This document shows positions 1,821 to 36,675 of a stretch of DNA of 36,675 nt, in pieces. Position 1 is the first letter of the stretch, and each line of letters begins with the position of its first letter. The DNA lies in IMG/VR virus record IMGVR_UViG_3300045988_072490, one strand, 5' to 3'. The position numbers were made by a program, and so were the translations under genes. Origin of the DNA: a virus. The notes under the pieces are model-generated. The model saw only the letters and a program-made list of their open reading frames with translations, was not told the origin of the DNA and searched no databases.

Positions 1821-2350
1821 TGGACGGGATACTAGACGCGGCGCGAATATCGGTGATTGCCTTTATAATGTCAGTAACCAACGATGTTATGACATTTTTT
1901 GTACTTATTGTCCTGTTCGGTACGCTGAATTTCGTGGTAGGGCTTGTAGCAGATTTAAGGGCCGGAAAACCGTACTCACACCGGAAGGCATTCCATGCAT
2001 TTTTCGAGTATGCGATAGCCGCGATAGTTATCACTTTCACGGCGGCGGCGGCAAGGCTGATACAGCCGGAAGGGGACCATACGCACGTTCTGAGACTGTT
2101 AACAACGTTATTTGCACTTGTGTATGCGAAGAATATTATCCGTAATTTCAAATTGATACAGCCGGATAACGAGTTTATATCCGTGCTTGATATGCTGATT
2201 AACACTAAGTATGTAGAATTCGTTAAAAAGTCAAAAAATGGAGTATTTCACAGTGAAGGAATTAACAAGGTCGGTGACGGCGGAGGCCCGGAAGATAGAC
2301 AACACACCGACACCGGATGCGGAAGCGAATCTGAAGGCATTAATAAGTAA
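1805..2350 (+). CDS. Putative holin (181 aa, 3-4 predicted TM helices)
   Basis: Hydrophobic segments ISVIAFIMSV...FFVLIVLFGTLNFVVGLVA, FFEYAIAAIVITFTAAAA and LRLLTTLFALVYA. It lies immediately upstream of, and overlaps, the endolysin gene. Confidence 0.6.
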   Translation: MFNKVMDGILDAARISVIAFIMSVTNDVMTFFVLIVLFGTLNFVVGLVADLRAGKPYSHRKAFHAFFEYAIAAIVITFTAAAARLIQPEGDHTHVLRLLTTLFALVYAKNIIRNFKLIQPDNEFISVLDMLINTKYVEFVKKSKNGVFHSEGINKVGDGGGPEDRQHTDTGCGSESEGINK

Positions 2351-2636
2351 CGTACTAGACCCGTTACGGAAGGCGTACGGGCACCCGATAACGGTGACTA
2401 GCGGTTACAGGTCGCCGAGGCTTAATGCGGCGGTAGGGGGCGTAAAGGCATCACAGCACCAAAAAGGACAGGCCGCAGATATAACCGCAGGCAGCCCGGA
2501 GGAAAATAAAAAACTATTCGATTTGGCACAGGAATTGAACCTACCATTTTGTCAACTCATAGACGAGAAAAAATACAAGTGGGTACACATCTCATATGAT
2601 AAGAATAACGTTAAAAGACAAGTACTACACTTATGA
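2238..2636 (+). CDS. Endolysin, peptidase M15 (zinc D-Ala-D-Ala carboxypeptidase-like) family
   Basis: N-terminal FTVKELTRS...IDNTP, then GHPITVTSGYRSPRLNAAVGGVKASQHQKGQAADI and WVHISY. This matches the H-x6-D...H metal-site pattern of the M15_3 family (from memory). Confidence 0.85.
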   Translation: MEYFTVKELTRSVTAEARKIDNTPTPDAEANLKALISNVLDPLRKAYGHPITVTSGYRSPRLNAAVGGVKASQHQKGQAADITAGSPEENKKLFDLAQELNLPFCQLIDEKKYKWVHISYDKNNVKRQVLHL

Positions 2637-3211
2637 GCAGACTAAATCAAATACTAATACTAGCCGTCGTACTGGCGGCTATATTACTTTTCTTCGCGTT
2701 CGGTAAGATACGGAAGCAGAGAGCCGAGATAGACCGCCTAGATTGGAATATAGAGGCGGTAAGCACCAAGGCGATGCAATACAAGTCCACGGCGGGAGAT
2801 TTCGCGGAACGTGTGAATACGCTGACCCTAGAGAAATCAGAGCTAGAAATGTTTAATGCAGACCTTAATAATAAGGTACGCGAGCTAGGAATAAAGAACC
2901 GGGAACTAAAGAATGCCACACGCACCGAGACCGTTACGAGAATAGACACAGTAATAAAGACCGTAGTAGACCATACCGAGACGAAAAGAACCGCGCACTA
3001 TAATGACGGTTGGAACGATATAAAGGTAGTGAGTCTTCCGGACAGTACGAAAATAGAGGTGCATTGCACCGATTCGCTAGATGTAATTACGCACGTCCGG
3101 CAAAAAAAGTTCCTTTTCTTTAGAATCGGCAAGCCGAAACCATATACAACCGTTTCAAACAAAAATCCGAAAAATACACTTCATATTAGGTTTTCGGCAA
3201 AATTCGACTAA
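2633..3211 (+). CDS. Membrane-anchored coiled-coil protein, spanin-like lysis accessory candidate (192 aa)
   Basis: ATGA overlap with the endolysin stop. N-terminal TM segment ILILAVVLAAILLFFAF followed by a charged helical region; last gene of the lysis cassette. Confidence 0.45.
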   Translation: MSRLNQILILAVVLAAILLFFAFGKIRKQRAEIDRLDWNIEAVSTKAMQYKSTAGDFAERVNTLTLEKSELEMFNADLNNKVRELGIKNRELKNATRTETVTRIDTVIKTVVDHTETKRTAHYNDGWNDIKVVSLPDSTKIEVHCTDSLDVITHVRQKKFLFFRIGKPKPYTTVSNKNPKNTLHIRFSAKFD

Positions 3212-3230
3212 AAATATTTACAATCGCAAC

Positions 3231-3570
3231 CTGTCTATTACACCTATCTGTGACACATAAGTAACTGTGTATCAAGCTACAAAATTTTTGCTGTCACAGA
3301 TAAACATTTTTCATCAGTGACACTAAACGTGCAGTAAATCAAGTACTTATGGCTAGTGTAATAGATGTAATAGATAAATCGTATAGAGATAAAATAGAAA
3401 AGTGCTATAAATGTTAATATATATCAAATCGTATATAGTATATTTTCATTTTAAACTAATAGGGAAAATGCTGTTACATCTGTGACATGACGCCTAACTT
3501 GCTGAACTACTGCACGTTAGGCGTCATTCTTCATCTGTGACACTAGCAATGTATCTGTGACACCCCCGCA
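3231..3570. promoter_or_regulatory. Structured non-coding element, copy A: an iteron array (ATCTGTGACAC family) around an AT-rich core with inverted repeats
   Basis: Forward motif copies at 3246-3256, 3313-3323, 3478-3488, 3533-3543 and 3553-3563; an inverted copy at 3292-3301; inverted variants GTGTAATAGAT/GTAATAGAT at 3357-3375. Paralogous to 19290-19655. Confidence 0.8.
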
Positions 3571-3614
3571 AATTTGTTAATTGTAGCTAAATACACAAAG
3601 TTTTTTCGGAAAAT

Positions 3615-3646
3615 GTTTTGTAGTTCAGGAGTAAGCCGTATCTTTG
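3615..3646 (+). promoter_or_regulatory. Promoter P1 (Bacteroidota type: TTTG at 3617-3620, TATCTTTG at 3639-3646)
   Basis: Matches the TTTG-N18-TAnnTTTG pattern. The 32-nt cassette matches P3 at 27/32 positions by hand alignment, and is followed by the shared TGTCGATA motif. Confidence 0.65.
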
Positions 3647-3864
3647 CAATGTCGATAGGGAAATGAGAACCCCGCCAATCGTAACCAAAGGGGGGTGAGA
3701 AGGGAAACACGGACGGTATCCCAATTCATTTGAAAAGACGGTGCGGTATCCGCTTAATTGAAGCTATAAAGCCGGAATCCTTATAACGACAAAAACTGTA
3801 AACCATACTAAATTTTATAGCACTATTCCGGAAGGCCGGAGAATCGGACTAATAATTACTAGAT

Positions 3865-4215
3865 ATGGGATATTTAAAAATTTACCGACTAGAAAAGTTT
3901 TTCTACGATACGGTAAAAAAGCGAATCTTTGAATGTCTTAGCCTGTGGACGATAAATGAGCTATACGGGCGCAAAGGCGCTGTTAGCATAGCGGAAGTAT
4001 TTGCAAAGGAACTAGAGGAAGAAGAAGCCGGAAAAAGATTTGAATATAACATCCGGGGCTTTATCATACCGAACGCCGACAAGTATCTATCCGTATACGA
4101 GCAAGCGCGCCAACGCGCCTTTATAGACTACTTATATTCGCGGAAAGGGCAATTCAGAACAATGGAGGAAACAAAAGAAAATTGGAAAAGAAATGGAAGA
4201 AAAAAGAGAAAATGA
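3865..4215 (+). CDS. Hypothetical early protein (116 aa), basic C-terminus
   Basis: First ORF of the early arm; no recognisable motif. Confidence 0.6.
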   Translation: MGYLKIYRLEKFFYDTVKKRIFECLSLWTINELYGRKGAVSIAEVFAKELEEEEAGKRFEYNIRGFIIPNADKYLSVYEQARQRAFIDYLYSRKGQFRTMEETKENWKRNGRKKRK

Positions 4216-4381
4216 CCTACTGACAGTAGCACAGGCCGCACGCCTCGTAGGGTGCACGGAAAACGCTATCCGGTATCAGTTGCAAACCGGGAATCTCACT
4301 AGATTCGAAAATGCAGCCGGAAAGATACGTATATCACGTAATGAAGTATTGGACAAACTTTTAAATTTTGAAAAGAAATGA
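4193..4381 (+). CDS. Small helix-turn-helix DNA-binding protein (MerR/excisionase-like HTH, 62 aa)
   Basis: LLTVAQAARLVGCTENAIRYQLQTGNL...KIRISRNEVLDKLL fits the HTH_17/excisionase-type pattern (from memory). Confidence 0.7.
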   Translation: MEEKRENDLLTVAQAARLVGCTENAIRYQLQTGNLTRFENAAGKIRISRNEVLDKLLNFEKK

Positions 4382-4980
4382 GAATTAATTTTGAACTGAA
4401 CACCGAGAACGAGAACCCGAGTATGTTACAGGCAACCGCCGAGTATCTGAACAACCTTGCAAAGATTAACGTAGGGCACGCAATTGAACCCGTACAGGGA
4501 TTTACGGAACCCAAACCGTGTAATTGTGCATGTGAGGAAGAAAAGCCCGTAGAGGAGCCTAAAAAGGGTGAGAGCATTGCCGAATCTATTGAGGCAGTAA
4601 AGGAACAACTAGCCGCCGAGAAAGAAGAAGCTAAAAAGACTACTAGACGTAGAGCGGTTAAAAAGGAAGAACCGGAACCAGCTAAAGAACCGGAACCCGC
4701 TAAAGAACCGGAACCAGCTAAAGAACCGGAACCAGCTAAAGAACCGGAACCAGCTAAAGAACCGGAACCCGCTAAAGAACCGGAACCCGTGAAGGAAACC
4801 GAAAAAGCTAAAGAACACGTCACAATCGAACAGGCCAAGGCCGTTGCAATGAAGGCGTTAAATAAGGGCCGCCGGGATGTGGTAAAGGACGCATTCGGGT
4901 ATGTGGGTGCAACGTCTTTCCCTTCACTTCCCGCAGAGAATTACGCCGACTTCATCAAGTACATAGAAGAAAACTTGTAA
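4378..4980 (+). CDS. Acidic repeat protein (200 aa) with EPEPAK x7. Its conserved C-terminal domain is typically found upstream of DUF2800 nucleases in this replication module.
   Basis: ATGA overlap at the start. The C-terminus HVTIEQAKAVAMKALNKGRRDVVKDAFGYVGATSFPSLPAENYADFIKYIE resembles a domain I recall from homologous modules. Confidence 0.7.
   Translation: MRINFELNTENENPSMLQATAEYLNNLAKINVGHAIEPVQGFTEPKPCNCACEEEKPVEEPKKGESIAESIEAVKEQLAAEKEEAKKTTRRRAVKKEEPEPAKEPEPAKEPEPAKEPEPAKEPEPAKEPEPAKEPEPVKETEKAKEHVTIEQAKAVAMKALNKGRRDVVKDAFGYVGATSFPSLPAENYADFIKYIEENL
4669..4794 (+). repeat. 18-bp in-frame tandem repeat GAACCGGAACC(A/C)GCTAAA, 7 units (EPEPAK x6 plus EPEPVK)
   Basis: Read directly; unit starts at 4669, 4687, 4705, 4723, 4741, 4759 and 4777. 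Confidence 0.95.
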
Positions 4981-8905: not shown

Positions 8906-11287
8906 ATGAATAAGTACACATTGTCGGTTGCAGGTAGTTCAGCGTCTTTAAAATGGTCTACTGTCAGATATACGTGGGAGGATTTTTTGGAGCGCCTCAA
9001 ACGAGATATACGCGGTACAGAGACTATGCGAGAGTTTGACCGCCTCGACCGCACCGCTCGCGCCAATTTGAAAGATGTTGGCGGATATATGGCGGGGGAA
9101 CTTTCCGGTGCTAGACGTCTTAAAAGTGCGGTATTATCACGGTCTATGATAACATTAGACGTTGACTATGCTGACGGTCTTTTTCCTGTGGAATTTGATA
9201 CTAGGTTTCCCGGTGTAGCAGCCGTTATATACAATACACGTTCAGACCGGGAAAAGAGCAGGCGGTTCCGTGTGGTTATTCCGTTCGCCGAAGAAGTGCA
9301 GGACGCGGCGCAATACGAAGCCGCAGCGCGTAAAATGGCGGAATTGCTAGGTATAGACTTGTTCGACCCTACCACATTCCAAGCCGAACGGATGATGTAT
9401 TGGCAATCTCTCTCATCAGACCAACCGAAAGTTTTCGAAGTGTTCGAGGGTGAGCCTATCAGCGCCGAATACCTGTTATCCCTGTACGGGAATAACGAGG
9501 AGTGGCGAGATATCCGTAATTGGGCGTTCAAGTCAGACCAGGAGAAAGAGACACGCGCAATTGTCAGTAAGGCAATGGCGCAGAACCCCCGCGAAAAGGC
9601 GGGTCTAGTAGGGGCGTTTTGCCGGGCTTATTCCGTTCCGGCGGCTATCGAAAAGTACCTTTCGGACGTGTACGAGATAGCGCCGGGAAACGACCGTTAC
9701 ACTTACAAGGCGGGGCATAGTGTGGGCGGTATGATAGTATTTGACGACCTATTTTGCTTCTCGTACCACTCCACCGACCCGATTTCAGACGGGCACGCCT
9801 ATAACGCCTACGACCTTGTACGTGTGCACAAGTTCGGGCACCTAGGTAAAGGGGGTAGCACGAAGGCGATGAACAAGCTAGTTTGCGAAGATAAGGACTG
9901 TGTTAAGGACTTGATTACGCCGGATGCCGATTTAAACGACTTCGAAGATTACGGGGATGCGGTGAAGTCAGATATAACCGAGGAAGTTACCGACCTTGTG
10001 TGGGATTTAGACGGAAAAGGGAACAAGCAAGTAACTGTTAACAACTTCGTTAACGCGTTCAAGTCCGACCCCCTGTTAAATGGGCTGCTGGCTTATGACA
10101 TGCTAAAGGAGACGATAGTATTTACCCGCCCGTCATTCACCGCCAAGGGAAGCAAGAAGGGCGACCCAGTCAATGATACGGATATCTCCATTATCAAGGG
10201 GCGTATAGAGCGCATGCACAGGATATACAATGATGCCAAGCTGAACGACGCAATAGAACAGGTTAGCAGTGATAACGCGTTCCACCCAATCAAATTGTAT
10301 CTAGAGTCGTTGACATGGGACGGGGTACCGCGCATTGATACATTTCTAGTTGAATATATGGGGGCCGAGGATAACGCATACACTCGCGAGGCGTTCCGGA
10401 AAATGCTGCTCGCAGCCGTTACACGTATATACGAGCCGGGGCGCAAGTTCGACACCGCTCTAGTATTCTATTCCGAGCAGGGTGTAGGAAAGTCAACACT
10501 TATCCAACGACTTTCAAAAGGGTGGTTCAATGATTCGTTAACCAACCTATCCGGAAAAGAATCATACGAGGCTATCCAATTTGCGTGGCTCGTGGAGCTA
10601 GCCGAGCTATCGGCCCTACGAAAATCGGACGTTGAGGCGGTGAAGAACTTTATATCTAAGCGGGAAGATACGTATAGGGGCGCATACGCTAGACGCGTGA
10701 AAACTCATAAGAGACAATGCGTATTTTTCGGCTCGACGAATGATGACGAATTTCTGAAGGATGCGACCGGAAACAGACGGTTTTTTCCCGTGGGGGTGAA
10801 ACGCACGAGGAAAACCCGCCTTATATTTGAGCCGGAATTTGATGCCATTGTAGACCAACTTTGGGCGGAAGCAATGGAGGGGTACATGTTAGGTGAAGCC
10901 CTCACACTATCGGATGAAGCGGAAGCCATTGCCGGCGGAACGCGCGAGGAGTTCACAGAGCGCACACCGATACAAGGTCTTATAGAGGAATACCTAGATA
11001 GATTGTTCCCAGCTGACTATGAAGATAGATTTCTAGCGCAACGCCTAGATTTCCTTAACGGTGATTTAGGGGAGGAAGGAACGGAAACTAAAAACTCTTT
11101 CAGTCTTATAGAGTTGTGGACGGAAGCGCTAGGAAGGCGGAAAGACGAGTACACAGTAGTTAAGGCTAGAGAGCTATCCAACGCGGTTAAAGCCTTGAAA
11201 GGTTGGAAGCGTGACAAGCAGGCCCGACAGAAAATATACGGCCCGCAGGTTATTTATAGGCGAGTAGGGGCAGATATTATAAAATAA
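8906..11287 (+). CDS. Primase-polymerase / VirE-family helicase fusion (793 aa)
   Basis: N-terminal AEP-like ITLDVDYAD and ...YHSTDP...GHAYNAYD. C-terminal VirE-like P-loop SEQGVGKSTLIQ and ...GNRRFFPV. Confidence 0.85.
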   Translation: MNKYTLSVAGSSASLKWSTVRYTWEDFLERLKRDIRGTETMREFDRLDRTARANLKDVGGYMAGELSGARRLKSAVLSRSMITLDVDYADGLFPVEFDTRFPGVAAVIYNTRSDREKSRRFRVVIPFAEEVQDAAQYEAAARKMAELLGIDLFDPTTFQAERMMYWQSLSSDQPKVFEVFEGEPISAEYLLSLYGNNEEWRDIRNWAFKSDQEKETRAIVSKAMAQNPREKAGLVGAFCRAYSVPAAIEKYLSDVYEIAPGNDRYTYKAGHSVGGMIVFDDLFCFSYHSTDPISDGHAYNAYDLVRVHKFGHLGKGGSTKAMNKLVCEDKDCVKDLITPDADLNDFEDYGDAVKSDITEEVTDLVWDLDGKGNKQVTVNNFVNAFKSDPLLNGLLAYDMLKETIVFTRPSFTAKGSKKGDPVNDTDISIIKGRIERMHRIYNDAKLNDAIEQVSSDNAFHPIKLYLESLTWDGVPRIDTFLVEYMGAEDNAYTREAFRKMLLAAVTRIYEPGRKFDTALVFYSEQGVGKSTLIQRLSKGWFNDSLTNLSGKESYEAIQFAWLVELAELSALRKSDVEAVKNFISKREDTYRGAYARRVKTHKRQCVFFGSTNDDEFLKDATGNRRFFPVGVKRTRKTRLIFEPEFDAIVDQLWAEAMEGYMLGEALTLSDEAEAIAGGTREEFTERTPIQGLIEEYLDRLFPADYEDRFLAQRLDFLNGDLGEEGTETKNSFSLIELWTEALGRRKDEYTVVKARELSNAVKALKGWKRDKQARQKIYGPQVIYRRVGADIIK

Positions 11288-11367
11288 CGGGTATCTTTGC
11301 CGCGAGAGAATCAATTACTACTCATTCAATCCCTCACCGACTACGATTTAAGGGGTTTACAGTTCAG

Positions 11368-11395
11368 AAAGGAGACGTTGCGAAACGTTTCCTTT
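11368..11395 (+). terminator. Hairpin terminator after the polymerase-primase operon
   Basis: AAAGGAGACGTT (11368-11379), loop GCGA, AACGTTTCCTTT (11384-11395), then TCTTTATTT. Confidence 0.65.
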
Positions 11396-11435
11396 TCTTT
11401 ATTTGTGTTAAATCTACAAAGTTTTTTCTCAAAAA

Positions 11436-11467
11436 GTTTTGTGATTCAAAAAGTATCCGTATCTTTG
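11436..11467 (+). promoter_or_regulatory. Promoter P2 (TTTG 11438-11441, TATCTTTG 11460-11467)
   Basis: Same 32-nt cassette as P1 and P3 (29/32 identical to P3), followed by TGTCAATAAG. Confidence 0.7.
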
Positions 11468-11509
11468 TAGTGTCAATAAGAAATTAATAACCCTTTAAAA
11501 TTAAAAGAT

Positions 11510-12957: not shown

Positions 12958-12991
12958 ACTGATATAACGAATGTTAATGTTTTGACAAAAA

Positions 12992-13023
12992 GTTTTGTAG
13001 TTCAAAAGGTATCCGTATCTTTG
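12992..13023 (+). promoter_or_regulatory. Promoter P3 (TTTG 12994-12997, TATCTTTG 13016-13023)
   Basis: Same 32-nt cassette as P1 and P2, followed by TGTCAAAAGG. Confidence 0.7.
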
Positions 13024-13061
13024 AAGTGTCAAAAGGAAATAACCACTTAAAATTAGAAGAT

Positions 13062-18295: not shown

Positions 18296-18435
18296 TTAAG
18301 AGATTTTGCAAGTGGATGAGTAGCCCGGAAGATTTGCCCGGGCTAGTAGTGAGAATGTTAACAGCGATTTTAATAATAGTGGTTTGGGCGTTCCTGTTGG
18401 CGCTGATAGCCGCATTAACAATGTGTAGATTATAA
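18292..18435 (+). CDS. Small single-pass membrane protein (47 aa, MIKRFCKWMSSPEDLPGLVVRMLTAILIIVVWAFLLALIAALTMCRL)
   Basis: Hand-translated. ATGA overlap at the 5' end and TAATG overlap at the 3' end link it to both neighbours. Confidence 0.5.
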   Translation: MIKRFCKWMSSPEDLPGLVVRMLTAILIIVVWAFLLALIAALTMCRL

Positions 18436-19007
18436 TGGGACAGAAACAAATGGATTGCAGAAAGAAACCGCTAGAGTTCGTAATACAGGACCTAGCCACG
18501 ATACTAAATGTAAATGAGTTCTTCCTATTCAAGTTCTGCAAGGAGAACGGGATATATTACCGGAAGGTTAAAAATTTCCCCTATCACCTAGTGAAGGCTA
18601 TGGATATTTGTGAGGCGATTCCAAAGATAAGAGGGGGGATAGCTACGGTACGGGACGATAGGAACACGAGAACGGAACCAAACCGGATACCAACTATTGA
18701 GACCCTATTTATCAAGGACAACAAAAAGACCAGGCTAGACAAGTTCAATACGGAGGATGTCCCTAGGATATGGTGCCCGGGAACGGGGACGGTTAATTAC
18801 CGAGGCAGGGTAGAATCAAATGTAATATACCGCCTTAACTATTATAAGGACGGCACCGTATCACTAGACATGTGGAAATGGTCGTTCCATAAGTGGGAAA
18901 CGGTGGAACCGTGCAGGGCGCTAAGGAATCGTAAGGAAATTTTACGCGAATGGGCATGCAAACATAGCTTTATAGCGAGGGATAAAGACGGTAAAGTAGT
19001 CGAATAG
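18435..19007 (+). CDS. Hypothetical protein (190 aa), last gene of the early arm; possible N-terminal HTH
   Basis: ORF in a coupled chain. The N-terminus LEFVIQDLATILNVNEFFLFKFCKENGI is weakly HTH-like. Confidence 0.55.
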   Translation: MGQKQMDCRKKPLEFVIQDLATILNVNEFFLFKFCKENGIYYRKVKNFPYHLVKAMDICEAIPKIRGGIATVRDDRNTRTEPNRIPTIETLFIKDNKKTRLDKFNTEDVPRIWCPGTGTVNYRGRVESNVIYRLNYYKDGTVSLDMWKWSFHKWETVEPCRALRNRKEILREWACKHSFIARDKDGKVVE

Positions 19008-19262
19008 CTGAAAAAACTTTCTTCTCAAATTTCTATGTTATTACAATTTTAGTGACGACACAAAGATTTTGAGAGGAAAGTTTTTTCTCATTTTATTAAC
19101 ATTTTAGGTTAATTGATACTAAATCGTTGTAAACAATATTTTTTGAGAGACAATTTGAAAATAACGTTTTTCGGGCAAAAAGAGTGTTTTAAAGGATATT
19201 GAGAGAAAAGTTTTTTGAGAGAAAATATACAATCAGCCGTTTTACGCATTTCTTCTCAAAAA
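19008..19262. repeat. Non-coding array of TTGAGAG/TTCTCAA and AAAGTTTTTTC motifs, including three copies of the composite 19-mer TTGAGARRAAAGTTTTTTC
   Basis: Composite copies: reverse at 19010-19028, forward at 19069-19087 and 19199-19217. Extra TTGAGAG at 19143-19149 and 19215-19221; extra TTCTCAA at 19253-19259. Confidence 0.8.
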
Positions 19263-19289
19263 AGTGTACTAAAAGGTTTTACAATTCTG

Positions 19290-19655
19290 TTTTATCTGTG
19301 ACACTTACCAATGACGCGTAAAGCGCTGATTATCAAGCTACAAACTTTTTGCCGTCACAGGTAAAGATTTTTCATCAGTGACACGTAACTGACTGATATT
19401 TATATAGTTATATATAGTGTAATAGATGTAATAGATGATTTGTATAGAGATAAAAATGAATGATTTTAGATTAGTGATTTGATATATATTAACTTATATT
19501 AATTAATATAAAATCAAAGGTGTTATTTTTTTATTTTTATCTTCCAGGGAAAATGCTATTACATCTGTGACACTGGCTGTAACTCGCTGTGCCACTGCAC
19601 TTTACGTGTCATTCTTCATCTGTGACACACCTATGGCATCTATTACACCCCTGCG
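19290..19655. promoter_or_regulatory. Structured non-coding element, copy B (paralog of 3231-3570)
   Basis: Motif copies at 19294-19304, 19374-19384, 19563-19573, 19618-19628 and 19638-19648 (variant); degenerate inverted copy at 19353-19362. Runs identical to copy A: 19416-19436, 19608-19628 and 19367-19384. Confidence 0.8.
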
Positions 19656-19728
19656 TTTCGGGACGTTAAGTTGCTGTAAAACAGATAGTTACGGTACGTA
19701 AACCACAATTATAGGCATTTAGCGTGTA

Positions 19729-19754
19729 TTTGAGGTGGGAATGTAGTATATTTG
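19729..19754 (+). promoter_or_regulatory. Candidate late promoter P4 (TATATTTG at 19747-19754)
   Basis: The TAnnTTTG box is followed by the shared TGTCAATAA motif, 28 nt upstream of the terS ATG. The nearest TTTG (19729-19732) is only 14 nt upstream, so the -33 element is uncertain. Confidence 0.5.
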
Positions 19755-19782
19755 CTGTCAATAATTAAGAATCAATTTTCGT

Positions 19783-20484
19783 ATGAATAAAACAGATAAG
19801 AACAAGGATGCGGGGAAGCCCGTGCCGGAGGTGGCAATAGGGAAAGACGGGGTGCCGGTGAACGTTGGTACGCAAGCCCGCCTCGAAAAATCCCCCACGC
19901 GCCTAAATCCGGCCGACGAAACCGGGTGCGATAGCGTTTTTCAGATATGCCGCCGCCGTTGGGGGCTGACCCCGCTTTGGCAGGAACCGGACGACCTTCT
20001 AGAAGCGTTCAGTCGGTACCGCGAGTGGATAGATGCGCACCCTATAATAGTACACGACGTAGTTAAGTCGGGTAACATGGCGGGTACCATACTAGACATT
20101 CCGAGAAAGCGACTTATGTCTGAATCGGACTTCTGCGCGTTCCTTGGCGCGGCACCTAACTATTTGGCGGACCGTAGACGGATATATGAAGCCAATTACG
20201 AAGAGTTCGGTCTAGAGGCATCCAAGGGATTCGCCGAAGCTATCGACAATATCCGTATGATGATATTTCAGGATATGGACGCGGGCGCGGCGTCGCAGGC
20301 GTTCGACCCTACGTACATCCGCTCTTTACGCGGGCTGAAAACAGCGCTTGACTACACATCCGGTGGCAAGGAGATTAAAGGAGGCCTCACAATACAGGTT
20401 TCAGACCCTAGGACGGCATCTAGAGTCCAAAAGCTAAAGGACTTCAAGAAAGAGCACAAAACGTCAGAAAACGAAGGAAAATAG
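19783..20484 (+). CDS. terS: Terminase small subunit (233 aa)
   Basis: Lies immediately upstream of terL. LEAFSRYREWIDAHP...RKRLMSESDFCAFLGAAPNYLADRR fits the Terminase_2-type pattern (from memory). Confidence 0.7.
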   Translation: MNKTDKNKDAGKPVPEVAIGKDGVPVNVGTQARLEKSPTRLNPADETGCDSVFQICRRRWGLTPLWQEPDDLLEAFSRYREWIDAHPIIVHDVVKSGNMAGTILDIPRKRLMSESDFCAFLGAAPNYLADRRRIYEANYEEFGLEASKGFAEAIDNIRMMIFQDMDAGAASQAFDPTYIRSLRGLKTALDYTSGGKEIKGGLTIQVSDPRTASRVQKLKDFKKEHKTSENEGK

Positions 20485-25677: not shown

Positions 25678-28286
25678 TGAAAGTATATTTACCCATAATC
25701 GACGAGACGCTAGTGAGTAGCGTGTCAATTGAAGAATCCAACTTCTATTTGCAACCTATCCCGGTATGGCCTACACGGTCGTACACGATTACCATTACAC
25801 CGGAAAGTCCCGCACAGGACGTGGGAATATCTATTCTGCAAGGCGGCGTTAACAAGTTCCTAAAGAATATCCCGTATTCACCGAAGATTGAGTTTGATTT
25901 GTCAATAGCGGGCACAATAATAAATCCGTTAACGCGTGACCGATCATTGGTAAATGGCGGAGGTAACGATTTAGGTCTAATCACTATATCGCACAATAGC
26001 AAATATTGTTTACTTATTTTGTTTAACGCGGATGTTCCCGTGCATATGATGCCCGCGATAGGCGGAACCAATTTCAAGTTCCCGGTAAAGCCGAGAATCC
26101 CCGGACAGCCATACGACATTATTATGCCGTCTTTGTCGTGGGAAGACAACGGGCTGACTAGCTACGACATCACATGTGAACCCGTGGACGATTACCACGG
26201 TGCGCACGTGTTCCCCACGAAGTATTTCCTAGGCAGTACGATAGATATCAGGTTCATCAAGAAATTAACCGTCAAAAGCCCGAAAACTGGCGATACGGTA
26301 GCCGTAGCCGAGTATGAAAATAAGTTGCCGCAAGCCGTAGCGAACGACGACCAAATGTTATGCGCCGCGCGCCTACGTTGGAATATGCGTAACGGGCAAT
26401 GGTTTTGGTATGCGTTTAAGGACTACTTTTGGAACGAGGGCTTCACTTATATGCGTGGTTTGGGCGGCGCGTCCGAGCAGGGCATTCTGACTATCAACGT
26501 AGCGTATGCAAAGGAATTTTATCCGGCATTCCAAGAGTTGTTAGTTTCGTCAAATATCGAATTGACGCTTCCGAAACAGTCCCCCACAATAGACGAGGAA
26601 CAACGATATAAAATGGAGGTTACCAGCGACACGGGCGCCCGGTGGAGCGGCTCGGAACGTGTGTACCGCCAACAGATTACATTGCGTACTATCGGCTTTA
26701 TGGATAACTATATACCGCCCGCTGAACCGGACGCGCCCGGCATTCTCCCGGCAGCGTTTACCGCTACTCCGTATGAGCAGTCGTACCCGTATGAGCAGTC
26801 GTACCCGTATGAGCAGTCGTACCCGTACTATGCCGATATAAATGCGTTAACCAACGTTACTAGTAATGTCAGGTGGGACATGGTTCCGCAGGCTGATTGG
26901 CTGATAATAGATGACCCGGCAAACGGAAAGGGCAGCATAGGACGTACACAGGTAGTAACTAGACGTAGGTTGAACCCTAGCACGGCACCCCGGACGGGAT
27001 ACTATCATTTCTTCAAGGAGGGAACGACCGAGCAGATAGGCGGAATAAAGATAAATCAGAACGGGGCGCCCGCAGTGAACGCCACGCCTAAGTTTTTGCC
27101 GATATCATCCGGGGGAGAATCAAAGTCCTTTACGGTGAGTTGCGCAACCGCCGGAGTGGGGAAATTAAAGGTTACTAATATGTCAGGCGCTAGTGGGGCA
27201 TGGGTTAATCTAGACGCTAGCCAATTGGAGCAAAACGGAGGAGATGTGTATGTGAACCCGGCGAATAATTTGCCGGAAACCGGAGGCGTTCCGCGCTCGT
27301 GCATTATCCGCACTACACACGACATCACCGGACAAATAGCGGATGTGAATGCCATGCAGTACGTAAATTGCCCTCTTGACAGATACCCGAACGATTTCAA
27401 ATGGGCGGGCAAAGGTATGTATGCATATGACGGAAATGCACATAATGATAATGAGTTTACCTTCACTTCCGGAATACCGTATACCGATATGGTCGCGGAA
27501 TGTAATTGTAGCTACGTAACTAATATTAGAATAGTACGTGCAGCACCTAACATTAAGCTAGTGTTTAATTTGGCGCAAAACGCGGGCCCCGGGGCAAACG
27601 CTGATAGATTTGCGCGTATCAACATCAAGCACGTACCCACCAGGAAAATATTGGGAACCTTAGTGATACTCCAACGCGCCTACAGCAATGCGCCTACTAA
27701 TTACGTGCATGCTAATTGGGACGCAGTAGAGGCAGGAGAAGGAAGTATGCATTCCTTTGAGTTGGTAACGGCTGCACCTATGGTGCCTAGCCTTAAACCG
27801 CCGTCGCTGGCTAAGGCCTACAATATTGACAGTCTCACCGTTAGCGGTGTGCAACTTAATAAGTTCCGCGTTATGCTAGATTGGAATCCCCGTCTGACCC
27901 GAACTGTCAATATACCGATGAGCGTTACGGGGGCTTCGGGGAACGCCCCTATTATACAGTATTCCAACGTTGACGCTATGGCAATATTATCTAATCAGAT
28001 TTGGGACCGCTTATCGCCCGTGTGGGTGTTGAGTGCAGCCAACGAACGAACCGCAGAAATAGCGGTACAGGCGCAAAAGCTAAAACAACGTGATGAGATA
28101 TCGTTCTTCCGGCTTGACAGTTGGGTAACACTAGAATCAACCAGGATAGACCCTAATAACGAATATATTAGAAAGTTCAATTTGCGGATAGCGGCCAATA
28201 CGACAGGCGCGGCACGGGGTACGGAAATTAGGTTCCAAAGACCGGGGATATCTGATATAATTATACGAATCGAACAAGCAGGGTAA
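25677..28286 (+). CDS. Large virion protein with several BACON-like (Ig-like) modules, candidate receptor-binding/tail protein (869 aa)
   Basis: Repeated module ends fit the BACON pattern W...W...N...R.a.I...Q (from memory): RTGYYHFF...IKINQNG, RSCIIRT...VNAMQY, RFARINIKH...LVILQRA and SWVTLES...AANTTGAARGTEIRF...IIRIEQAG. Confidence 0.6.
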   Translation: MKVYLPIIDETLVSSVSIEESNFYLQPIPVWPTRSYTITITPESPAQDVGISILQGGVNKFLKNIPYSPKIEFDLSIAGTIINPLTRDRSLVNGGGNDLGLITISHNSKYCLLILFNADVPVHMMPAIGGTNFKFPVKPRIPGQPYDIIMPSLSWEDNGLTSYDITCEPVDDYHGAHVFPTKYFLGSTIDIRFIKKLTVKSPKTGDTVAVAEYENKLPQAVANDDQMLCAARLRWNMRNGQWFWYAFKDYFWNEGFTYMRGLGGASEQGILTINVAYAKEFYPAFQELLVSSNIELTLPKQSPTIDEEQRYKMEVTSDTGARWSGSERVYRQQITLRTIGFMDNYIPPAEPDAPGILPAAFTATPYEQSYPYEQSYPYEQSYPYYADINALTNVTSNVRWDMVPQADWLIIDDPANGKGSIGRTQVVTRRRLNPSTAPRTGYYHFFKEGTTEQIGGIKINQNGAPAVNATPKFLPISSGGESKSFTVSCATAGVGKLKVTNMSGASGAWVNLDASQLEQNGGDVYVNPANNLPETGGVPRSCIIRTTHDITGQIADVNAMQYVNCPLDRYPNDFKWAGKGMYAYDGNAHNDNEFTFTSGIPYTDMVAECNCSYVTNIRIVRAAPNIKLVFNLAQNAGPGANADRFARINIKHVPTRKILGTLVILQRAYSNAPTNYVHANWDAVEAGEGSMHSFELVTAAPMVPSLKPPSLAKAYNIDSLTVSGVQLNKFRVMLDWNPRLTRTVNIPMSVTGASGNAPIIQYSNVDAMAILSNQIWDRLSPVWVLSAANERTAEIAVQAQKLKQRDEISFFRLDSWVTLESTRIDPNNEYIRKFNLRIAANTTGAARGTEIRFQRPGISDIIIRIEQAG
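26769..26828 (+). repeat. 18-bp in-frame tandem repeat CCGTATGAGCAGTCGTAC, 3 exact copies plus a partial (PYEQSY x3)
   Basis: Read directly at 26769-26786, 26787-26804 and 26805-26822, with a partial copy at 26823-26828. Confidence 0.95.
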
Positions 28287-36264: not shown

Positions 36265-36675
36265 ATGGAAAGATTACAAGATATTGGACAAATTTTGGCG
36301 CTGTGTGTGCGCATGACTAACTTAAAGTTGGAGGCTTCGTGCGGTTTTGACAGACAGTTCGCCGCACAATGGTATGAAAACGAGTATTTGACCGGAAAAC
36401 ACACGCGCTACGTGATGAAACCGGACTTGTCGATTACATCATACGAGGACGGAAAGGTGTACCGCGCATTTAATTGCGATGATGCAAAGGCCGTTGAACT
36501 AATGGAGGCGAACCCGGAATACCGCGATTACTTTATCGATATGGAATCGGTATCCGTTACCATTCCGGAACTAGGGGATGACCCGTTTGCACCGGAGCCG
36601 GGAGTAACAGAACCTACCGAACCGGGAGTAACAGAACCTACCGAACCGGGAGTAACAGAACCTACCGAACCGGGA
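36265..36675 (+). CDS. 5' portion of the wrap-around ORF (137 complete codons to the window end; continues at base 2, or at base 74 if the overlap is collapsed)
   Basis: ATG at 36265 with no stop before the window end. The last codons read PGVTEPTE PGVTEPTE PGVTEPTE PG. Confidence 0.65.
   Translation, partial: MERLQDIGQILALCVRMTNLKLEASCGFDRQFAAQWYENEYLTGKHTRYVMKPDLSITSYEDGKVYRAFNCDDAKAVELMEANPEYRDYFIDMESVSVTIPELGDDPFAPEPGVTEPTEPGVTEPTEPGVTEPTEPG
36598..36675 (+). repeat. 24-bp tandem repeat (PGVTEPTE), 3.25 copies, continuous with the repeat at 1-90
   Basis: Read directly; codon-phased units begin at 36598, 36622 and 36646. Confidence 0.95.

Follow-up and report, generated by a model that had tools for sequence, protein, structure and literature searches.

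A duplicated, iteron-like non-coding module in a lytic Bacteroides siphophage genome as a candidate pair of SaPI-Rep-type replication origins

Staphylococcal pathogenicity islands (SaPIs) replicate through Rep proteins, initiator-helicases that load themselves and recognize iterons through a C-terminal winged helix; in a SaPI origin, 6–12 iterons surround a central AT-rich region, two or more per side in opposite directions, and in SaPI5 the pri and rep genes are fused (PMC9371898). Phage SPP1 has two origins, oriL and oriR, about 13 kb apart, each consisting of repeats and an AT-rich unwinding element and both bound by gp38, and gp38 at oriR has been proposed to stall the replication fork and so to trigger the theta-to-sigma switch (PMC6316719). 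Here we analyze a 36,675-nucleotide stretch of viral DNA, IMG/VR record IMGVR_UViG_3300045988_072490 (hereafter the window), in which a non-coding module is present in two copies, A and B. By analogy with these systems we lean, with confidence a little above even, towards reading A and B as a pair of loci that bind an initiator, most probably SaPI-Rep-type replication origins served by a phage primase-helicase. The original prediction, made from the letters of the window, did not recognize the module as any described element; its best-supported reading does correspond to a described kind, the SaPI-type Rep origin, and SPP1 oriL/oriR provides a precedent for two copies.

The first 73 bases of the window are identical to its last 73, which makes it a complete genome of about 36.6 kb, either circular or terminally redundant. 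Its plausible genes, taken from a list of open reading frames (ORFs), are all on the + strand, and we identify it from its sequence as the genome of a lytic Bacteroides siphophage. The record ends resemble assembly breaks, with an overlap of 73 nt in the window and 55 nt in the relative BC679P5. The nearest relatives are the isolated lytic Bacteroides siphophages BC669P1-3 and BC679P1-5, followed at greater distance by the BK687P and BK745P phages and BO1; these phages fall in the recently proposed "Bacteroiduroviridae", a large and prevalent family of lytic gut Bacteroides siphophages whose description makes no mention of the A/B elements (PMC12694917). We refer to the window clade, the BC clade (relatives of isolates BC669/BC679) and the BK/BO clade (BK687P1, BK745P1 and BO1). 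As predicted, each copy stands at the head of one of two arms. Gap A (3212–3864) is the lysis-to-replication boundary, between the lysis end of the late module and a replication module that encodes a DUF2800 nuclease, an Enc34-type single-stranded DNA-binding protein, a family A DNA polymerase and a VapE-like (VapE/Rep) helicase; gap B (19008–19782) lies between the last early/middle gene (18435–19007, unannotated) and the small and then large terminase genes (terS at 19783, then terL), so that B comes just before terS.

The two copies (Table 1), some 16 kb apart, are about 72–77% identical over an alignment of about 340–360 nt, and each contains ten sites, counting degenerate ones, of a family whose consensus in the window is the 11-mer ATCTRTKACAC. 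At up to one mismatch, ATCTGTGACAC matches the window 10 times, always within A (3246, 3291 on the − strand, 3313, 3478, 3533 and 3553) or B (19294, 19374, 19563 and 19618); 0.32 matches are expected, and none of 100 shuffles reached 10. The order and orientation of the sites are the same in A and B, as are the successive spacings (13, 45, 22, 43, 9, core, 55 and 20), the sole difference being the core length, 113 versus 137 nt. Most of this architecture had been anticipated, and the anticipated parts stand: the five forward and one inverted 11-mers of A are the six positions of the mismatch scan, the tandem inverted variants are present at 3356–3375, the 12-bp hairpin has fully complementary arms, the four identical A/B runs (21, 21, 18 and 14 nt) are all exact, and the same blocks do recur in the same order in the second copy.

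Table 1. Coordinates of the duplicated module and associated features in the window
Feature	Position	Strand	Sequence or description
Copy A of duplicated module	3207..3570	none	From A/B alignment, repeat families and multi-genome alignments
Limits of copy A			Start: DUF6549 stop codon and invariant TTTACAAT (3217-3224); end: ...ACACCCCCGC
S1	3233-3243	+	GTCTATTACAC, degenerate
S2	3246-3256	+	ATCTGTGACAC
S3	3291..3301	-	ATCTGTGACAG on - strand; 10-bp inverted repeat with S2
S4	3313..3323	+	ATCAGTGACAC
S5/S6, left inner tandem pair	3356..3375	-	ATCTATTACAC + ATCTATTACAT on - strand; 9-nt period (starts 3356, 3365)
Left core-edge box	3382..3390		TATAGAGAT; invariant in window and BC clades
AT-rich core of A	3376..3462		Putative DNA unwinding element
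Right core-edge box	3455..3470		ACTAATAGGGAAAATG; equivalent ACTAATAGAGAAAC kept in all three clades
S7a/S7b, right inner tandem pair	3469..3488	+	TGCTGTTACAT + ATCTGTGACAT; 9-nt period (starts 3469, 3478); mirrors S5/S6
Hairpin/palindrome of A	3487..3527		Perfectly complementary 12-bp arms ATGACGCCTAAC (3487-3498) / GTTAGGCGTCAT (3516-3527)
S8	3533-3543	+	ATCTGTGACAC
S9	3553-3563	+	ATCTGTGACAC
Copy B of duplicated module	19283..19655	none	
Sites of B, left side	19294+, 19307+, 19352-, 19374+, 19417-, 19426-		19307 and 19352 weak
AT core of B	~19437-19547		83% AT
Sites of B, right side	19554+, 19563+, 19618+, 19638+		19554 weak
Hairpin of B	~19569-19611		Imperfect
Early-operon promoter	3617..3646	+	Canonical Bacteroides promoter, TTTG-N18-TAnnTTTG, of early (replication) operon; outside duplication
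Leader RNA of early operon	3650..3864	+	Structured 5' leader; separate feature, not duplicated in B
Putative late promoter	19729..19754	+	3' of B; -7 box TATATTTG at 19747-19754 (TAnnTTTG)
PriRep	8906..11287	+	793 aa; fused primase and SaPI-type Rep helicase; candidate initiator
PriRep C-terminal winged-helix domain	~10970-11284		
Peptidase_M15 gene	2238-2636	+	Upstream of gap A
DUF6549 gene	2633-3211	+	Directly upstream of gap A

The inner sites of each copy are arranged symmetrically about the core. The S5/S6 pair, which is the best-conserved block of the module, is directed away from the right-hand pair, and when reverse-complemented it matches that pair over 17–22 nt in the window clade and 10–21 nt in the BC clade; two sites therefore lie on each flank of the core in opposite directions, an arrangement also found in copy B and in the BC clade. 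The core itself is 81.6% AT at 3376–3462, and the AT-rich core originally placed at about 3340–3460 is confirmed at 78.5% AT, compared with 53% for the genome. Multi-genome alignment reveals many indels in the core, some of them large, and a length of about 50–100 nt in copies with reliable boundaries, while AT content stays at 78–88% in all copies measured. Because composition is fixed whereas length and sequence are free, the core behaves as an unwinding element and not as an operator or an RNA. With ten sites per copy around a core of 82–83% AT, the module has the counts of a SaPI origin.

To the right of the core, the hairpin keeps a nearly invariant inner TAAC/GTTA, and its outer pairs vary with some compensation. 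Its arms pair in 72% of cells as opposed to 30–41% in slid controls, and the observed covariation was reached by 1 of 500 shuffles. On the left, the S2/S3 inverted repeat forms Watson-Crick pairs in 217 of 250 cells within the window clade and shows compensatory differences between A and B within the window. These features might suggest that the module acts as a folded single strand, either as a structured RNA (3' untranslated region, terminator or small RNA) or as single-stranded DNA hairpins that serve priming or a single-strand origin, and the module does fold far better than its shuffles (z=-4.9 for the + strand). The opposite strand, however, folds nearly as well (z=-3.9), and since both strands exceed their shuffles the folding signal reflects inverted repeats at the DNA level. 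RNAalifold returned no consensus structure across clades for the right-hand segment, the AT core carries large indels, and the left pair is lost in the BC and BK clades; S2/S3 as an obligatory stem was therefore rejected, as it holds in the window clade only. Rfam scans anywhere in the window and tRNA scans gave nothing at E values up to 1, and no terminator-like hairpin with a T-run was found in the scanned regions around copies A and B. We therefore regard a folded-strand function as very unlikely. An attempt to read the strand of folding from an excess of G-T over A-C oppositions in the hairpin (33 versus 9) was also set aside: the excess is compositional (shuffles give 31 versus 11), so the hairpin provides no strand information.

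A conserved small protein gene is a further conceivable source of the A/B similarity, since gap A carries short hypothetical ORFs in the annotation of some GenBank records. In both copies each frame is interrupted by 5–13 stop codons, and A has no ORF of at least 25 aa, in agreement with the earlier description of 3212–3864 as ORF-free. Moreover, the A/B differences are spread evenly across codon phases (27/22/25, p=0.77), clades differ by indels whose lengths are not divisible by three, and the ORFs in those records cover the promoter and leader on the opposite strand, a region in which close relatives differ by a 1-nt indel. The stop codons in all frames and the lack of codon periodicity led us to reject this explanation, whose probability we consider practically nil; the check proposed earlier for such a gene thus yielded none that explains the similarity.

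An exact-pattern scan of IMG/VR with the S5/S6 block returned 37 stretches, which together with the isolates and the window gave 48 instances of the module. All 48 occupy either slot A, between the DUF6549 gene and the first early gene, or slot B, between the unannotated gene p18435 (18435–19007) and terS, and most contigs of about 36 kb contain exactly two. Site positions are identical in both copies in about 17 window-clade genomes. Across lineages, the site sequence differs at the same positions, with an ATCT core common to all: it reads ATCTATGACAT, or carries a GTGAC core, in the BC clade, ATCATTCACAC or ATCTTTTACAC in the BK/BO clade, ATCTGTGCA in BU3-1 and ATCTATCCA in SJC17. Within-genome similarity of A and B was detected in 9 of 9 close genomes and extends to BU3-1 (83% over 229 nt), which keeps the pair though its primase-helicase is only 42% identical. 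Relatives therefore preserve both the 11-mer positions and the paired arrangement, as the original prediction required of a functional element.

Within a lineage, the two copies remain similar to each other. In the window clade, A and B are 72% identical to each other, whereas the orthologous A-A and B-B comparisons with the BC clade reach only 65–67%; within the BC clade, A versus B (81–84%) is indistinguishable from A-A or B-B (82–85%). A neighbor-joining tree of the left 205 nt places window-clade A and B as sister groups, apart from all BC-clade copies, and intermixes the A and B copies of the BC clade. In contig 3300045988_038561 (c038561), a tract of about 100 nt of B, covering the AT core, is 92–100% identical to the contig's own A, compared with 28–30% in the window and about 30% in other window-clade genomes, and marks a discrete, recent gene-conversion event. 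On these alignments we conclude that A and B evolve in concert within lineages. An apparent 55-bp tandem duplication in copy B of BC679P5 was rejected as an artefact of joined record ends.

The alignments also bear on how the second copy arose. A/B homology begins before gap A (3195–3224), and the B copies of the BC clade (L002, L004 and L005) carry ...TTCGACTAAAAATGTTTACAAT, the last codons and stop of the DUF6549 gene that lies upstream of A. Because they carry these end codons, the sequences suggest that the duplication went from A to B.

The position of B directly upstream of terS and terL raises the possibility that the terminase recognizes the module for packaging, as a pac- or cos-like site; the copy next to terS would then be the working one and the other a relic. 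Binding sites of small terminases are often repeat arrays. A, however, lies far from the terminase genes and is equally complete and conserved in every genome, both copies experience purifying and concerted evolution, and an AT-rich core with mirrored flanking sites is no known pac layout. A packaging role is extremely unlikely in our estimation.

A candidate reader of the sites is encoded in the replication module. Residues 377–714 of PriRep, a fused primase and SaPI-type Rep helicase, match SaPI1 Rep1 (PDB 7PDS) at E=1e-76, and its N-terminal third aligns with stretches of other phage proteins that carry a primase annotation. A profile of the last 130 residues matches the Rep1 C-terminal domain (7PDS residues 329–465; E=2e-7). 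In an AlphaFold model of the last 260 residues, the C-terminal domain has a predicted local distance difference test score (pLDDT) of 89–94 and a helix-helix-beta-hairpin topology; a Foldseek search with this modeled domain gave strong matches to 7PDS chains only (E ~1e-11), followed by weak winged-helix matches. Between clades, PriRep diverges most in its C-terminal domain, with 42–50% identity to the BK clade compared with 60–92% elsewhere, which fits, without proving, co-evolution with the sites. No DnaB-type helicase or loader was identified among the window proteins scanned.

Taken feature by feature, the likeness to SaPI origins (PMC9371898; PDB 7PDS and 7OLA) comprises a Rep homolog that includes the C-terminal winged helix and is fused to a primase as in SaPI5, and short repeats divided by an AT-rich center, two or more on each side and in opposite directions. 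Unlike the SaPIs, which have one origin, the phage has two copies per genome; its module adds the TATAGAGAT and ACTAATAGAGAAAC boxes, the hairpin and the outer sites; and its carrier is a lytic Bacteroides siphophage instead of a staphylococcal satellite. With SPP1 the module shares two homologous, distant loci on the circularized genome of a lytic siphophage transcribed from one strand, repeats with an AT-rich unwinding element in each locus, and one origin (oriR in SPP1) in a long intergenic region with transcription signals. The two differ in that gp38 is unrelated to Rep and requires the gp39 loader and the gp40 DnaB-type helicase, oriL lies inside gene 38, and the SPP1 repeats are direct while the phage sites are mirrored around the core. 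A third parallel, drawn here by description, is phage P4, which needs both ori and crr, each bound by the alpha protein, a multifunctional primase and superfamily-3 helicase with a C-terminal winged-helix origin-binding domain. P4, too, has two cis loci several kb apart that share a short iteron; of these only ori fires, crr is accessory, and the two are not colinear copies. In a DnaA-dependent iteron origin of the plasmid oriV or lambda-like kind, DnaA boxes adjoin the iterons; no match to the DnaA box TTATCCACA at up to one mismatch was found in A or B.

Proceeding from the observed architecture, conservation, concerted evolution and protein homology, we infer the steps of binding, melting and firing. 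The C-terminal winged-helix domain of PriRep would bind the sites of A and B, two helicase rings would self-load, one per core flank, the AT-rich core of about 85–110 bp would melt, and the primase domain and the phage family A DNA polymerase would begin synthesis. Both copies would have to fit the same protein and would therefore co-evolve with it, with additional homogenization by gene conversion. As an alternative within this reading, one copy may be an origin and the other an accessory initiator-binding site; by analogy, such an accessory copy could act as a barrier to the fork, in the manner of SPP1 oriR, or as an enhancer in cis, in the manner of P4 crr.

Several observations weigh against assigning A and B as SaPI-Rep-type origins. 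The sites measure 9–11 bp, as opposed to 5–6 nt for SaPI iterons, and SaPI origins lie directly 3' of rep, whereas in the window the rep gene is 5.3 kb from the end of A, which precedes it, and 8 kb from the start of B, which follows it; the gap 3' of that gene (11288–11509) holds a promoter and none of the sites. Cumulative GC skew rises monotonically with no switch at A or B, although it is uninformative here because all genes are on one strand. A/B pairing is weak in SJC17 (70% over 133 nt) and marginal in the Parabacteroides phage PM708P2. The link between sites and C-terminal domain is a correlation, as all proteins differ between clades and early1, p18435 and terS diverge faster. A small protein with an HTH_17 match (4193–4381; E=6e-5, below the Pfam cutoff), encoded just 3' of A, is a possible alternative binder. 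Finally, both copies lie 50–80 bp upstream of promoters, a position equally compatible with a transcriptional role.

The promoters themselves lie outside the duplication, as A/B homology ends at about 3570 and 19655. The original prediction had placed a Bacteroidota-type promoter at the end of the element; the promoter is confirmed at 3617–3646, but it does not belong to the duplicated module. TTTG-N18-TAnnTTTG has only three matches on the + strand of the window, all in the early/middle region, and the 3617–3646 promoter resembles the other two, at 11438 and 12994. Promoters and flanks at 3603–3663, 11424–11484 and 12980–13040 form near-identical canonical units with about 60 nt of common flanking sequence. 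The promoter 3' of B (19729–19754) is not matched by the canonical pattern: its TTTG lies only 13–14 nt upstream of the −7 box, versus about 18 in the canonical form, a spacing that the alignment shows to be kept in all three clades. Because this spacing is short, the late promoter is suggested to be weak and activator-dependent. Sigma-70 and terminator scans around both gaps remained at chance level.

The original prediction had listed three candidate roles without choosing among them. Of these, the origin is the best supported and a structured RNA is unsupported for the duplicated element, while an operator or enhancer role, the main rival, is possible but unlikely. In the latter case, A and B would be arrays for a phage transcription factor, possibly the HTH_17 protein or the unannotated p18435 just upstream of B, that times the early-to-late switch and might loop the two copies together as lambda OL and OR are looped. 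The end of each copy 50–80 bp upstream of a promoter (3617–3646; 19747–19754), the short spacer of the late promoter, the HTH_17 match encoded next to A and the rapid evolution of the flanking genes would all agree with this, and concerted evolution suits any shared DNA-binding factor equally well. The flanking genes in question, early1 (3865–4215), p18435 and terS (19783–20484), are among the fastest-evolving proteins kept in all clades, with 38–46% identity to the BK clade compared with 60–87% for most other proteins; p18435 and early1 gave no usable Pfam, PHROG or PDB sequence match and no family or structure match. Position is nevertheless of little weight, because in a one-direction genome any long intergenic element stands upstream of a promoter, and no such module accompanies the canonical early promoters at 11438 and 12994. 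In addition, an AT core of 85–110 bp, conserved in composition but free in sequence and length and flanked by mirrored tandem sites, is foreign to known operator arrays, and PriRep is homologous to an initiator proven to read iterons. Lambda OL/OR do resemble A and B as two paralogous site arrays upstream of two promoters with one phage protein as reader, but they consist of three 17-bp sites that overlap the promoters, with no AT-rich core and no mirrored tandem pairs. The phage arrays stop 50–80 bp short: between the end of the last site and the start of the −33 element, the positions are 3563 and 3617 for A, and 19648 and 19729 for B.

Origin and regulatory roles are not mutually exclusive. 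A and B might be obligatorily paired and tie replication to the program of transcription, one duplicated module timing the lytic cycle, although we judge this distinctly improbable. Primase-helicase at A and B could in that case bridge the two loci, which divide the circle into early and late halves, and the bound protein could silence the canonical early promoter and activate the late one, which is weak and has a short spacer.

Structured RNA, which the original prediction had listed as one possibility for the duplicated element, is instead found next to it, in the non-duplicated leader at 3650–3864. When the window is compared with the BK clade, identity is about 95% for this leader and only 40–60% for the flanking proteins. 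Its RNAalifold consensus contains 43 pairs in 9 helices with six compensatory pairs, compared with 1.5±1.0 in shuffles (0 of 500 reach six) and 0–2 in slid controls. Thermodynamic stability is unremarkable (z=-0.2), the leader has no Rfam match, and BK745P1 lacks its first ~150 nt. On this comparative evidence the leader is a well-supported structured RNA, possibly a cis-regulatory leader, an antitermination-type RNA or a processed small RNA.

Other repeats were observed in and around the two gaps. The upstream, non-duplicated half of gap B (19010–19263) contains about six TTTTGAGAGA / TCTCTCAAAA motifs in both orientations, including a 20-nt inverted repeat of 95% identity (19010–19029 / 19068–19087). 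Six copies of the motif occupy the same place in BC-clade genomes, the strict pattern was not found in the BK clade, and the word also occurs just 5' of the −33 elements of early promoters (11424; the A promoter in the BC clade). This array could be a regulator-binding or terminase-binding site. In PM708P2 (L048), the gap-A equivalent holds a self-complementary palindrome of about 200 nt (19217–19414; 70% identity) in place of a clear A/B pair. Three window genes carry in-frame tandem repeats: eight 18-nt units at 4649–4846 encode PEPAKE repeats in a 200-aa early protein, 24-nt units at 1–121 and 36555–36675 encode TEPTEPGV repeats in a gene that spans the assembly junction, and three 18-nt units at 26769–26827 encode YPYEQS repeats in an 869-aa tail protein.

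Most genes and all non-coding DNA of this common gut phage family lack annotation. Likely origins and a likely initiator provide a handle for phage engineering, for Bacteroides shuttle replicons and for reading replication from metagenomic coverage. Why a 36-kb phage would keep two origins is a question shared with SPP1, where it has been answered in part. Should A and B couple replication to transcription, a single protein together with a single duplicated DNA module would set the timing of the entire lytic cycle in a widespread family of gut phages. If A and B are origins of the SaPI-Rep type, self-loading helicase systems of the SaPI type would reach beyond staphylococcal satellites into phages of Bacteroidota, and the family would offer a clean natural case of initiator/origin co-evolution in which two origins are kept in step by gene conversion.

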